Positions 28,786 to 39,156 of a DNA stretch of 64,000 nt are shown here, one piece after another. The stretch is from sequence record PV933157.1, one strand, 5' to 3'. Position 1 is the first letter of the stretch. Each line of letters begins with the position of its first letter. The position numbers were made by a program, and so were the translations under genes. Source of the stretch: Escherichia phage 24-32N. Below the pieces are notes generated by a model. It was given only the letters and a program-made list of their open reading frames with translations, was not told the DNA's origin and made no database searches.

Positions 28786-31700
28786 TTAGTTAGTAAGATT
28801 GAGCCAAGGGTTCAGGTTATGGGCACGTAAGCCCTGACCAAATCCGAAGGAGTAACTAAGGTTACCCTGTGCAGCAATACTAAAGATGTTGTCCTGAATA
28901 GGCAGACCAACGTTACCAAACATGGTAGGGGTTGGAGCCAGCATAGCCATAGCAGCATGTACTGGGTTGTTACGAATCATGGACACTGCAACTTTTGCAG
29001 AACGAATCTTAAAGTTGTAGAACCACATCAGACCAACGCTTTCCATATACCCACGGAAGCGACCCGGCAGACGGTCATAGTTAATGAACTCTTCCGTTAC
29101 ACGTCCCAGTGCTTCTTCACGAGTCTTACCTTTACGCTGAGTCAGTTCATCATAGATGATTGCTTTAGCGATAAAGTCAGAGTATTCAACCGTTTTCTGG
29201 ATACCCTGGAAGAGAGCAGTATCCTTGGTGATAAGTGCATAACGTCCAGCAGTACGTACAGACTTAGGTAACTTATCAGCCAGCTTATCCATGTATTCGT
29301 GAAGTTTACCCTCAGTAATAAGGATGTCATCACGACCGATACCAGCATCTGCAATCGAAGAGAACTCACCGGCTTCTAATAGAGGCCAGATACTCATACG
29401 CTTATGACTATCAGAGATGGACTGAATCTCAGCCTTAAGCTTACGAATCTGGTTCGGGTTAGTAGCTGCACGTAATTCTGCTTCTGCATCTACCTGACGC
29501 AGACGAGATTTCAGGTACTGGTTAATCTCAGCAGTCTTCTGTGGAATGCTCTTAGCAATGTTCTTAACAGGCACACCACGAGCAACCATCTGATAAAGGT
29601 TAGCCAAGAAGTTAACAGCAGGTACGACTACTGACTTAACTACAATCAGGGTCTTAGCTTCTTTAACTAAGTTCTGAACCAGGTTCTCACCACCCATTGT
29701 GTACTTATAAGCACGGTTACCAAATACACCCAGCATAGCTTTTTTGAAGGTATCCAGTGTTTCTGGGGACCAACGAGAATTACCAGACCAGGCATCCCCT
29801 ACAGAAGCTGTACGATAACCAAGAGCATCGTTTAGCATGTCACGACGTACCCACAACTCACCTGGGCCAAACAGACTTTCTGCTTTCTGACGAGTTTCAC
29901 TATTCATCAGCTTAAGAGCATCGGCAGTTACTGGGTCCAGTTTAGAACCAAGAAGGTTAACGTACTGAGACTTATTAGAGGCAGACATCTTAATGTCGTT
30001 CTCATACATGCTATGTAGGTTCTCAATAAGCATATCGTTGAAACGCTGAGCCTTAGCTTCTTCTACCTGACGACCACGCCATACACCAATTGCACGAGCA
30101 AGATGGTTCTCACCCTCAATGTGCTTCAGCATGTTAGGGTCAATGGATTGCTCGTAAGCAACCACATTCCCTTTGTCATCATATACAGGCAGAAGTGGTT
30201 CATTACCACGTTCACCACGAGCCAGTGCTTTAGTGATACGGTCTACGGAAGGCTTGTCAGTGATACGACCTGCTACCATGGAACCCATCGTAAAGCCTGT
30301 ACCAAGGTCCACACCACCAGCAGTATTACGAACGTTCTGTAATATACCCTGCGAGAATGGAGCCTGTGCCTGAACTGGTGCAAAGTAGTAGCTACGTGCC
30401 GGACCACGGTTAGCAGAGCTGCCTTGATAAGTACCCAGACGTACATAGGATTTCTCAATCAAATCAGCAAACTGACTATCTTCAGCAACAATCAGGTTAA
30501 CACCCTGTTTAGTTTCACTAGGGATATGTCCTTTGTACTGGTTCAAGGTTGCACGCATATCAGACTTGGCTTTAGCCATTTCATCTTTACGCTGCCCAAC
30601 CAGATAAGAAGTAGCAAAGTCCATACCTTCAATTTCTGTCTGAGCCAGTGAAGATAACATCTCACGGTCAGTCTTATTCATTGCTTCCAGTGCATACAAG
30701 GTAATCAGCTTATCCAGTTGAGCCACATCTACGGTAGAACGTGCAGCCTGACGTTCCCCCAGCATACGAGAAATTGCAGTAGCATTACGCAGCAGGTTAT
30801 TACCGACTGTACCGTTAATCATGTACTGAGCCAGTTGCTTAGATTTACGGCTAATCAAAGGCCAGTTACGCCCTGCTTGTTTCTGCAAATCTGCTTCCAG
30901 TTTATTCACCTCACGGTCAACAATCTTCTGGTCAGACAGCAGGTCACGGATTTCAGCCAGAGACATAGTGTCACGCAGGACAGCCAAGTCAGTTTTACCT
31001 ATACCGGTATGCATTGCTTTCCATTCATCATTAGTCAGCTTACGGCTGAACTTGGATGCGATAGTGGTAGGCAAATGTTCACGGAATTGCTGACGGTCAG
31101 CCTGTACCTGTGCACGAACTGCCTTAATCAAATCATATACAGAAGCATTGCTCTTAGTACGTCCGGTTAAGTCATTAACCAGGTCGTGGAAAGGTTGCCA
31201 TGCCTTACCCTGGTTCATTGCAGCCATAACACCTTCAGCCACGATTGCACCATTCTTTTCTGTAGCAATAGCAGCTACCAGTTGTGCAGCATGAGCAGCA
31301 CCTTTAACCAACGGGTTCTTGGTATTAGCTGCAACTTCACGAGCACCTTCTAAAGCACGGGTAGACAGTACATCAATAGAGTCCACCAGATACTGGTTAG
31401 CACGGTCAATAGCATTACCACTAGGAGTGGCGACGGAATCATAGAAGGACTGAGCATTAAGACTGGTCTGCATGATTGTCTGAGCCAGTGCATCCATGCC
31501 TTCCTGTACATTGGTAGCTTTAGTATCACCTGCTACACGAGCATTCAGACTAGCCATTGCAGCAGTACCGATATTAGTCAGCATTGTATCAACAGTATTA
31601 CCAGATTTCTTATCTGCTTTCATAACAGGAATGTCAGCCAGCACATTACGTACATCTTCACTTACCATTGCCAGTGCCACAAAGGTAGGCAGTAAGGAAG

Positions 31701-39156: not shown

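Follow-up and report, generated by a model that had tools for sequence, protein, structure and literature searches.

The minus-strand gene that occupies most of the interval between 28,786 and 39,156 in the window, a 64,000-nucleotide stretch of Escherichia phage 24-32N DNA (PV933157.1), encodes, with very little room for doubt, an orthologue of N4 gp50, the virion-encapsidated RNA polymerase (vRNAP) of the Schitoviridae, here in a Gamaleyavirus (G7C/IME11-like) coliphage. The product is collinear with gp50, retains its catalytic and promoter-contact residues, contains no cysteine, is encoded within an ejection operon and is accompanied by a hairpin promoter at the left genome end. Nothing that we could read in the sequence appears to speak against an N4-type vRNAP. 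Because the protein is nearly identical (98.8%) to the product of the annotated IME11 gene, the gene is an ordinary and already known member of the giant RNA polymerases of N4-like coliphages. Its significance is therefore slight beyond correct annotation, as it is a textbook feature of these phages with a near-identical copy in GenBank. It places the window in a Gamaleyavirus schitovirus, and its domain boundaries can be obtained by transfer from the N4 structures of 2025-2026.

Reading frame and family membership

The open reading frame spans 28786..39156 on the minus strand, a strand that the first-pass annotation had not given, and counts 3,456 codons from a TTG without any internal stop on translation; from base composition, such a run of stop-free codons has a chance probability of ~10^-89. 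The uninterrupted 10.4-kb frame and the figure of 3456 given in that annotation both hold for the ORF, the latter figure failing for the protein. The TTG at 39156 is merely the furthest upstream start retained by the ORF finder and overlaps the ribosome-binding site AGGAAA, while the ATG at 39138 opens a protein beginning MSTFDRLAGF, to be compared with MSVFDRLAGF in N4 gp50, and agrees with the annotated IME11 start. This ATG is therefore almost certainly the true start and the product has 3,450 residues (374 kDa), not 3,456.

Several searches identify the product as an N4-type vRNAP, as had been claimed in the first-pass annotation. In phmmer searches, residues 1-3449 align with residues 1-3499 of the N4 gp50 chains 11gp, 9pnq and 9pnr, and BLASTP counts 2303/3503 identities with 2% gaps (~66-67% identity end to end). 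The alignment to gp50 and to mini-vRNAP that had been put forward as a check thus extends over the whole protein in the first case and over the polymerase domain in the second. Four vRNAP-specific Pfam families (PF21894, PF21867, PF21769 and PF21624) are matched with scores far above their cut-offs and E values of 1e-28 to 1e-101, and PHROG 2206 ('virion RNA polymerase') covers aa 25-3449. A single polypeptide of 3,450 aa also falls within the range of ~3,400-3,600 aa of the gp50 family. At the nucleotide level, the gene is 97.1% identical to the IME11 'virion RNA polymerase' gene, and megablast returned 59 records spanning at least 80% of its length.

Several relatives in GenBank carry erroneous labels for this gene, namely 'DNA polymerase', 'translation initiation factor 2' and 'gram positive anchor domain protein'.

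Table 1. Features of the vRNAP locus and its surroundings, in window coordinates
Feature	Position	Strand	Basis or remark
Bidirectional terminator-like hairpin, 10-bp stem, just past the vRNAP stop	28757..28780	.	Where two convergent gene blocks meet
vRNAP CDS (gp50 orthologue), 3,450 aa + TAA stop (28786-28788)	28786..39138	-	ORF, ATG start, IME11 identity
C2 subdomain, aa 2327-3450, large, alpha-helical	28789..32160	-	70.3% identity to N4; function from literature
C1 subdomain, aa 2083-2326, zincin-like HExxH module	32161..32892	-	63% identity to N4; invariant columns, profile match, Iyer et al. 2017
Invariant E2261	32356..32358	-	Candidate third metal ligand
HELVH, aa 2184-2188	32575..32589	-	Invariant in 10 lineages
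Linker 2, aa 2069-2082	32893..32934	-	~10 aa shorter than that of N4
Polymerase domain, aa 999-2068 (N4 mini-vRNAP)	32935..36144	-	3q0a/3c2p/2po4 at E=0; 71.5% identity to N4; PF21867, PF21624, PF21894, PF21769
Motif C KIFDGMNIG, aa 1912; D1915 = N4 D951	33379..33405	-	Alignment
Motif B RGIAKNPLTITIYGSG, aa 1630; R1630, K1634, Y1642 = N4 R666, K670, Y678	34204..34251	-	Alignment
Motif A DGVTNGP, aa 1523; D1523 = N4 D559, preceded by E1521 = E557	34552..34572	-	Alignment
Plug insertion, aa 1424-1505, N4-specific autoinhibitory element	34624..34869	-	PF21624 vRNAP_plug, E=1.7e-28
TxxGR motif TRVGR, aa 1384-1388; R1388 = N4 R424	34975..34989	-	Alignment; motif named in PMC4496689
Linker 1, aa 902-998, low-complexity T/E/V/P-rich tether	36145..36435	-	Alignment, composition
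NTD, aa 1-901 (N4 aa 1-906), flexible, membrane-associating, implicated in genome injection	36436..39138	-	60.2% identity to N4; function from literature
Ribosome-binding site AGGAAA	39145..39150	-	6 nt 5' of ATG 39138; read from sequence
Intrinsic-terminator-like hairpin between the gp51 homologue and vRNAP genes	39206..39225	-	Equivalent PhAPEC5 site annotated as terminator
gp51 homologue, 651 aa, ejectosome partner, no Cys	39242..41197	-	48% identity to N4 gp51; PHROG 6126
gp52 homologue, 147 aa (from the Met aligned to N4 M1), ejectosome partner, no Cys	41210..41653	-	57% identity to N4 gp52
Early promoter, P1 equivalent, CATGC-TCC-GCATG on the coding strand	63686..63698	+	Template (minus) strand hairpin, loop GGA

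Domain architecture and conserved residues

The polymerase domain contains the three strings singled out in the first-pass annotation (DGVTNGP, RGIAKNPLTITIYGSG and KIFDGMNIG), which correspond to N4 vRNAP motifs A, B and C. With the upstream TxxGR motif, the catalytic elements follow the canonical order and begin, when residues are counted from the ATG, at aa 1384 for TRVGR, 1523 for motif A, 1630 for motif B and 1912 for motif C. As motifs A to C lie in the region of aa 1523-1912, 44-56% along the protein, their assignment to the central third was right. In the alignment with N4, residues W129, K114, R119, R424, K437, D559, R666, K670, Y678, D901 and D951 are conserved, while R440, E557 and R904 (N4 numbering) fall in invariant columns; K1401 and R1404 of the window protein are the equivalents of N4 K437 and R440. 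The sole difference from N4 at any residue checked is the replacement of the mini-vRNAP residue K267 by Asn. For the catalytic residues D559, K670, Y678 and D951, the N4 numbering is presumably that of Kazmierczak et al. (2002). The residues for promoter recognition, K1079, R1084, W1094, D1865 and R1868, correspond to N4 K114, R119, W129, D901 and R904, whose roles in the recognition of hairpin promoters have been described (PMC4496689; PMC13492108), and are conserved throughout. The motif A residue E557 has likewise been documented, as have K437 and R440 (PMC4496689). Judged from the alignment, every catalytic or promoter-contact residue with a documented role is conserved in the window vRNAP.

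The regions flanking the polymerase domain have known counterparts in N4. The association of the NTD with membranes and its link to genome injection have been reported (PMC12633501; PMC13434306; PMC13492108). In N4, linker 2 corresponds to residues 2102-2123 (PMC12633501), and the literature on this phage describes C2 as packing on the polymerase and autoinhibiting it, the C-terminal domain (CTD) being required for encapsidation. The least conserved part of the protein is linker 1, with 46.9% identity and 21 gap positions relative to N4 907-1006.

Within the CTD, the C1 subdomain carries a putative metal-binding site. Across 10 lineages sharing 18-61% identity, H2184, E2185, H2188 and E2261 are the sole invariant columns of C1. 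This conservation was established with tblastn against phage records and with 8 distant loci, a protein homologue search with C1 having given 3 short fragments only. A C1 profile matches 9sfn_G, an 'Internal virion protein' (E=1.9e-13), in which a Glu aligns with E2261; no paper on PDB entry 9SFN was found in the literature search. Matches of the profile to the HExxH region of thermolysin (E=0.14) and to Spartan (~1) were below threshold, as were weak matches to curated peptidase families: SprT-like in 3/10 members (best E=0.031), M78 and M91. The zincin assignment of C1 was ruled out as a new observation, since this module was published as an MPTase in 2017, with an HHpred match to lethal factor (P=4.1e-4) (Iyer et al., 2017). 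The zincin-like modules of phage and plasmid 'polyvalent proteins' described in the same study, together with 9sfn_G, share with C1 the signature HExxH ... (N)E(F/L)xAWgL. In the portions of the literature searched, including those of two 2026 N4 structure papers, no report of bound zinc or of peptidase activity was found for any vRNAP. It is possible, if rather doubtful, that the HExxH...E site is an active zinc metallopeptidase acting after ejection, either on a linker of the vRNAP itself or on a host protein. Self-cleavage, if it occurs, would release the polymerase from the autoinhibitory CTD or from the membrane-anchored NTD, and such processing has been predicted (Iyer et al., 2017). If true, the peptidase would belong to the family at large and not be special to the window; the possible catalytic activity of this invariant HExxH is the one biological question that the gene touches.

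The first-pass annotation had raised the possibility of lineage-specific domains, here taken as accessory and variable ones, in the N- and C-terminal thirds. Some observations point in this direction: by tblastn against phage records from many host genera, the NTD has the narrowest detectable distribution (224 records), its coverage dropping to 16-30% in distant genera; some relatives carry extra modules, such as the ~121-aa insert in linker 1 of PhAPEC5; and other vRNAPs are fused to ART, lysozyme or RNase (Iyer et al., 2017). However, both terminal thirds can be matched to N4 position by position at 60-70% identity with hardly any gaps, a PHROG 2206 match runs through them, the CTD is detectable in 467 records and thus more widely than the polymerase domain itself (375), and the window protein has no extra segment relative to either N4 or IME11. 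The suggestion is thus very improbable; the terminal thirds are conserved family-wide and have been described in papers of 2017-2026.

Even less credible is a degenerate vRNAP relative, catalytically dead and kept as a structural or ejection protein. No evidence in favor of it was found, the K267 substitution being the only departure from N4 at the checked positions, and against it stand the conservation of the TxxGR, A, B, C and promoter-contact residues, the rank of the polymerase domain as the best-conserved large block (71.5%, rising to 93% over N4 residues 1901-2000) and the presence of cognate promoters in both the window phage and its nearest relative. The unusual size of the ORF, about four times that of the next-longest in the window (880 aa), could raise the suspicion of an assembly or frameshift artefact fusing several genes. 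Such an artefact is hardly conceivable, as N4 gp50 and 59 independent phage records are collinear with the ORF without any frame break, as not a single indel separates it from IME11, and as the purified N4 protein has a solved structure in which it forms a single chain of 3,500 aa.

Ejection operon, hairpin promoter and proposed mode of action

The homologues of gp51 and gp52 lie directly upstream of the vRNAP gene on the same strand, with structural genes further out. At the position equivalent to the hairpin that follows the vRNAP stop codon, terminators are annotated on both strands in PhAPEC5. The vRNAP contains 0 cysteines in 3,450 residues, versus 0.82% in the other proteins of the window (P ~10^-12), and none was found in 13,231 residues of CTD from 9 lineages. 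The suppression of cysteine is a published hallmark of the Schitoviridae ejection operon, and its absence here was for this reason ruled out as a new observation.

The cognate early promoters of the gp50 family are hairpins with a 5-7-bp stem and a 3-nt loop at the left genome end, and their template strand carries a purine at -11 together with -10G, -8G and +1C. When the window was scanned with a pattern derived from N4 P1 and P2, a sole match with at most 2 mismatches was obtained, at 63686-63698. It is collinear with N4 P1, from which it differs by 2 compensatory base-pair changes in the stem, and its DNA folds at -7.8 kcal/mol (z = -2.4). The template strand reads -12A, -11G, -10G, -9C, -8G and +1C, in line with all the published determinants; the predicted +1 falls at 63703 and the ATG of the gp1 homologue at 63743. 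Of the early promoters expected, this is the only one inside the window, the remaining early region, ~8 kb, lying outside it. In the early region of IME11, the closest relative, 4 such sites were found versus 0.22 expected, a number reached in 0/200 shuffles. Matches with 3 mismatches at 11858, 13574 and 24401 were rejected, as they are at chance level (4 found versus 3.0 expected) and form no hairpins. For the vRNAP gene itself, a scan for sigma70-type promoters around the gene gave 12 matches versus 24.6 in shuffles, so that no promoter was called.

By homology to N4 gp50, to which it is 67% identical, the protein is expected to be packaged, ejected, autoinhibited and active in hairpin-dependent transcription, and early transcription is expected to resist rifampicin and to depend on gyrase and SSB. 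A few copies of the cysteine-free 374-kDa protein would be packed in the capsid, a step for which the CTD would be needed as in N4. At adsorption, the gp52 and gp51 homologues, the presumed builders of an envelope-spanning channel, would leave first, and the vRNAP would follow them through the tail. The NTD would then associate with the inner membrane, while the polymerase domain and the CTD would refold in the cytoplasm, tethered by the flexible linker of ~100 aa. A hairpin promoter (5-7-bp stem, 3-nt loop) would be extruded from the supercoiled template with the assistance of host gyrase and SSB, and the -11G of its loop would be read by R1084 and W1094. Transcription would start 11 nt downstream of this base, with GTP placed opposite +1C, leading to the early RNAs.

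Comparison with IME11, N4 and T7-like polymerases

The closest known protein is the vRNAP of Gamaleyavirus IME11 (YP_006990621.1; Schitoviridae), which has the same length of 3,450 aa and the same neighbours. The two proteins differ by 42 scattered substitutions, none of which affects a catalytic, promoter-contact or HExxH residue.

N4 gp50, for which structures of the full-length protein (9PNQ, 9PNR and 11GP) and of mini-vRNAP (2PO4, 3C2P and 3Q0A) are available, shares with the window vRNAP the identical domain order (NTD, linker, polymerase domain, linker, C1, C2), as well as the catalytic motifs, the plug, the -11G readers R119 and W129, the HExxH and the D2012-R2279 'clasp' pair. The two phages also have in common a cysteine-free vRNAP, the synteny with gp51 and gp52 and a hairpin promoter with a GGA loop. 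The window protein is 50 aa shorter, and nearly all of this difference resides within the two flexible linkers.

The relation to T7-like polymerases is more distant. The first-pass annotation called the protein T7-like, which is apt for its motifs and probable fold and not for its sequence: at E<=10, the polymerase domain retrieved N4 chains only, without T7 or mitochondrial RNA polymerase, and the Pfam T7-type family (RNA_pol) was not among the matches at E<=1. This agrees with the description of mini-vRNAP as a highly diverged member of the T7-like RNA polymerases, in which TxxGR, A, B and C are equivalent to the T7 motifs (PMC4496689). Being 71.5% identical to the N4 domain of known structure, the polymerase domain of the window protein probably adopts the right-hand fold with thumb, palm and fingers. 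T7 and mitochondrial polymerases would thus share with the vRNAP this fold in addition to the TxxGR/DxxGR, A, B and C motifs. In contrast, the vRNAP is 3-4 times larger, with an NTD and a CTD added, and, on the N4 model, it would read a hairpin on a single-stranded template where T7-like enzymes read a duplex promoter. [quoted passage not shown]

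The polymerase gene and its ejection operon

The giant gene reported by the first-pass annotation at 28786..39156 is real: the interval holds one uninterrupted ORF of 3,456 codons counted from a TTG, lying on the minus strand, which had been left unstated. Translated, it runs without an internal stop and includes all three polymerase strings quoted at the time (DGVTNGP, a motif B string and KIFDGMNIG). From base composition, the probability of 3,456 codons without a stop is about 10^-89, and the next-longest ORF within the window has 880 aa. The TTG, merely the furthest-upstream start given by the ORF finder, was rejected as the true start. 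Because the ATG at 39138 yields an N terminus (MSTFDRLAGF...) that agrees with that of N4 gp50 and with the annotated start in the nearest relative, Escherichia phage IME11, the product (vRNAP) has 3,450 aa and 374 kDa. With strand and start so corrected, the observation is confirmed.

When the gene was searched by megablast in 50,697 phage records, the IME11 'virion RNA polymerase' (Schitoviridae; Enquatrovirinae; Gamaleyavirus) matched at 97.1% identity over 100% of the gene length, and some 45 more records, mostly with Escherichia or Shigella phage names and some explicitly Gamaleyavirus, matched at 92-94%. At the protein level, 42 substitutions and zero indels separate it from IME11 vRNAP (98.8% identity), and BLASTP against N4 gp50 (from NC_008720) gave 2303/3503 identities (66%), 79% positives and 2% gaps. 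The alignments that had been proposed as a check were obtained over the full length, residues 1-3499 of PDB chains 11gp, 9pnq and 9pnr ('Virion DNA-directed RNA polymerase', 3,500 aa) matching window residues 1-3449 in one stretch, and for mini-vRNAP, the isolated polymerase domain of N4 gp50, whose crystal structures (2po4, 3c2p, 3q0a) align to residues 999-2068. Four vRNAP-specific Pfam domains (E 1.7e-28 to 7e-101) and PHROG 2206 'virion RNA polymerase', spanning aa 25-3449, back the same N4-type identity, as does residue conservation. Several relatives deposited in GenBank carry this gene under a wrong name, as 'DNA polymerase' (PBM-2, PBM-3, UE-M6, ST4, HK2), 'translation initiation factor 2' (phi G17), 'gram positive anchor domain protein' (ECBP1) or 'hypothetical protein' (JX880034, PMBT57).

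Directly upstream lie homologues of gp51 and gp52, the remaining two ejection proteins, and past these structural genes, the major head protein among them. [quoted passage not shown] At the position matching the hairpin 3' of the vRNAP stop, PhAPEC5 has terminators annotated on both strands.

The three proteins encoded by this operon (4,248 aa together) contain no cysteine, and N4 gp50 and IME11 vRNAP are likewise Cys-free. The remaining 36 window proteins have 115 Cys in 13,212 aa (0.87%). For vRNAP alone, the probability of lacking Cys is about 10^-12 against a background of 0.82%, which includes the Cys-free gp51 and gp52 homologues. The C-terminal domains (CTDs) of nine distant lineages also hold 0 Cys in 13,231 aa. 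In a study of phage DEV, Cys suppression was described for homologues of gp50, gp51 and gp52 in 191 schitoviruses and tied to crossing the oxidising periplasm (PMC11445570). The absence of Cys seen here is thus an already published hallmark of the Schitoviridae ejection operon.

Elsewhere in the window, two adjacent tRNA genes (26442-26599) lie inside an ORF-poor stretch, 24650-27040, and this 2.4-kb region contains no ORF of at least 80 aa. The tRNA at 26442-26517 has an abnormal anticodon loop, was left unnamed by ARAGORN and scores only 40 bits with Rfam; the second is tRNA-Ile(AAT), at 66 bits. A strong terminator with a 13-bp stem follows at 26845-26876.

Features of the vRNAP locus, protein and promoters (nt, window coordinates; aa, window vRNAP residues; IME11, coordinates within segment NC_019423 56500-63300)
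Feature	Position	Strand	Remark
Hairpin, 10-bp stem	28757-28780		3' of vRNAP stop, where two convergent gene blocks meet
Start codon ATG	39138	minus	vRNAP start
AGGAAA	39145-39150	minus	six bases before ATG
Terminator-like hairpin	39206-39225	minus	5' of vRNAP gene
gp51 homologue	39242-41197	minus	48% identity to N4 gp51
gp52 homologue	41210-41653	minus	57% identity to N4 gp52
P1-type hairpin promoter (candidate)	63686-63698		left-end region
gp1 homologue	ATG 63743		cut by window end
NTD	aa 1-901		60.2% identity to N4
Linker 1	aa 902-998		46.9% identity to N4, 21 gap positions
Polymerase	aa 999-2068		71.5% identity to N4
vRNAP dom_2	aa 1292-1407		Pfam
vRNAP plug	aa 1424-1505		Pfam
vRNAP helical domain	aa 1583-1799		Pfam
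vRNAP dom	aa 1881-2025		Pfam
C1	aa 2083-2326		62.7% identity to N4
C2	aa 2327-3450		70.3% identity to N4
IME11 pattern match	1615-1634		
IME11 pattern match	5398-5417		
IME11 pattern match	5657-5676		stem weakened
IME11 pattern match	6518-6537		

Catalytic residues and the relation to T7-type polymerases

Alignment with N4 mini-vRNAP places D1523 of motif A at D559, preceded by E1521 (E557), R1630, K1634 and Y1642 of motif B at R666, K670 and Y678, and D1915 of motif C at D951. The TxxGR motif reads TRVGR, with R1388 at R424; K1401 and R1404 align with K437 and R440. The promoter readers K114, R119, W129, D901 and R904 are kept as K1079, R1084, W1094, D1865 and R1868. The numbering of D559, K670, Y678 and D951 is presumably that of Kazmierczak et al. 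2002 and fits E557 as a motif A residue. The sole residue differing among those compared is aa 1232 (window 35443-35445), an Asn where mini-vRNAP has K267, a putative promoter contact. Roles for E557, K437, R440, K114, R119, W129, D901 and R904 are given in PMC4496689 and PMC13492108.

The first-pass annotation had staked its reading on an alignment with T7-like palm and fingers motifs. By plain sequence none was obtained: the polymerase-domain query retrieved nothing but N4 chains at E<=10, and no T7-type RNAP Pfam family matched at E<=1. This does not refute the interpretation, because the literature places mini-vRNAP far from the other family members, with scant similarity beyond motifs A, B, C and TxxGR (PMC4496689); its catalytic functions were confirmed by mutagenesis and its crystal structures have the right-hand fold, according to PMC4496689 and PMC13492108. 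Through these motifs and the 71.5% identity of the window polymerase domain to the solved mini-vRNAP structures, there is good support for the view that vRNAP functions in the manner of a T7-type RNAP, with membership of the T7 family absent at the profile level.

Terminal domains

Domain boundaries were taken from N4 (2025 preprint PMC12633501; published as Nat Commun 2026, PMC13434306). The N- and C-terminal thirds had been suspected of holding lineage-specific domains, the one part of the earlier interpretation that is not supported. In separate tblastn searches of all phage records, the N-terminal domain (NTD), polymerase domain and CTD matched 224, 375 and 467 records, respectively, spanning Escherichia, Klebsiella, Achromobacter, Stenotrophomonas, Erwinia, Rhizobium, roseobacter, Salmonella, Pseudomonas and Vibrio phages; matches carrying a functional annotation were almost always labelled vRNAP. 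Of the three parts, the CTD can thus be detected most widely and the NTD has diverged most, and neither terminal domain is specific to one lineage. Every segment of the protein has a counterpart in N4 and IME11, and the 50-aa length difference from N4 gp50 falls nearly entirely within two flexible linkers, linker 1 being T/E/V/P-rich and of low complexity. The Pol-C1 'clasp' D2012-R2279 of N4 is kept as D1979-R2230. A real lineage-specific addition, absent from the window protein, is found in the 3,571-aa vRNAP of PhAPEC5 (NC_024786, locus coordinates 319-11034), whose linker 1 carries a ~121-aa non-low-complexity insert after the equivalent of window aa 978-982; VTCCBPA_322 vRNAP has apparently the same extra length.

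In the N4 reports, the NTD is not resolved by cryo-EM, has membrane-spanning helices predicted at N4 224-278, inserts into nanodiscs and is implicated in genome injection (PMC12633501, PMC13434306, PMC13492108). Published N4 work describes the CTD as needed for encapsidation and the isolated polymerase domain as more active than the full-length enzyme.

Within the CTD, C1 contains HELVH at aa 2184-2188 (N4 2228-2232). In an alignment of this region from ten schitovirus lineages (18-61% identity), the only invariant columns are H2184, E2185, H2188 and E2261, the last inside ALNEYMAW, a pattern that would be expected of a gluzincin-type metal site. Beyond N4 itself, the alignment profile retrieved PDB 9sfn_G 'Internal virion protein' (E=1.9e-13), the match to C1 (window 32161-32892) falling on HEaVHA ... 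ELvAWGLT; the thermolysin HExxH region reached E=0.14 and Spartan about 1, and SprT-like, M78 and M91 gave sub-threshold matches in member-by-member Pfam scans. Chain G, solved and 1,337 aa long, has a C1-type HExxH...E(L/F)xAWGL module, a connection between the vRNAP CTD and proteins ejected by another phage; a literature search found no paper describing entry 9sfn. The zincin-like assignment is not new: N4 aa 2130-2448 have been unified with zincin-like metallopeptidases, and such modules proposed to process 'polyvalent' delivered proteins (Iyer et al. 2017, PMC5512222). In the available parts of the 2026 structure paper the HExxH motif is merely noted. The only residual novelty would be catalytic activity of this site, a possibility that concerns the whole vRNAP family. 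As for C2, the C-terminal end of PHROG 19273 (4,846 positions, function unknown) matches aa 2652-3397 (window 28948-31185, E=2.9e-26), an indication that this module is shared by another family of phage proteins, larger still.

A hairpin promoter and comparison with N4

A coding-strand pattern, GNNGC-TNC-GCNNC-TTNTGGA, was built from N4 P1 (GTTGC-TTC-GCAAC) and P2 (GAAGC-TCC-GCTTC, found at N4 559-571). The sole good match in the window, with 2 mismatches, is CATGC-TCC-GCATG-TTATGGA at 63686-63705; three matches with 3 mismatches were rejected as no better than chance (4 found, 3.0 expected). Two base pairs of the stem differ from N4 P1 in a compensatory manner, G-C to C-G and T-A to A-T, and the flanks are kept (cacgttaca..., ...TTATGGACATG). 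The template strand is predicted to fold into a DNA hairpin of 6 bp with a 3-nt loop (-7.8 kcal/mol, z = -2.4). With the loop centre, 63692, set as -11, the template bases of this candidate promoter (-12A, -11G, -10G, -9C, -8G and +1C at 63703) agree exactly with those published as determinants.

The final ~400 bases of the window, from about 63596, run collinear with N4 bases 1-270 and, from base 1, with PhAPEC7 and St11Ph5. The window thus crosses the genome terminus and enters the left end, which means that the source record has been either circularly permuted or joined over the terminal repeat. The window holds part of the early region, the remainder being beyond its end. In the IME11 early region, 4 pattern matches were found against 0.22 expected (0/200 shuffles reach 4), all with a TCC loop and each just 5' of an early gene; one lies directly upstream of the gene annotated RNAP1 (RNAPII subunit).

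The sequence itself shows an intact gene, its homology to N4 gp50, conserved residues, the operon setting, the lack of Cys and a promoter that fits the enzyme. Extrapolated from N4, the CTD would mediate encapsidation of vRNAP, which would be ejected after the gp52 and gp51 homologues, anchored in the membrane by its NTD and refolded. Autoinhibition by the CTD, plug and motif-B loop would be lifted by promoter binding, hairpin extrusion would need gyrase and SSB, and initiation with GTP would occur 11 nt downstream of the loop centre. The gene is already known: its product is orthologous to a protein characterised in both structure and biochemistry, and a near-identical GenBank entry is annotated. 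IME11 has four hairpin-promoter matches, in comparison with the three promoters described for N4.
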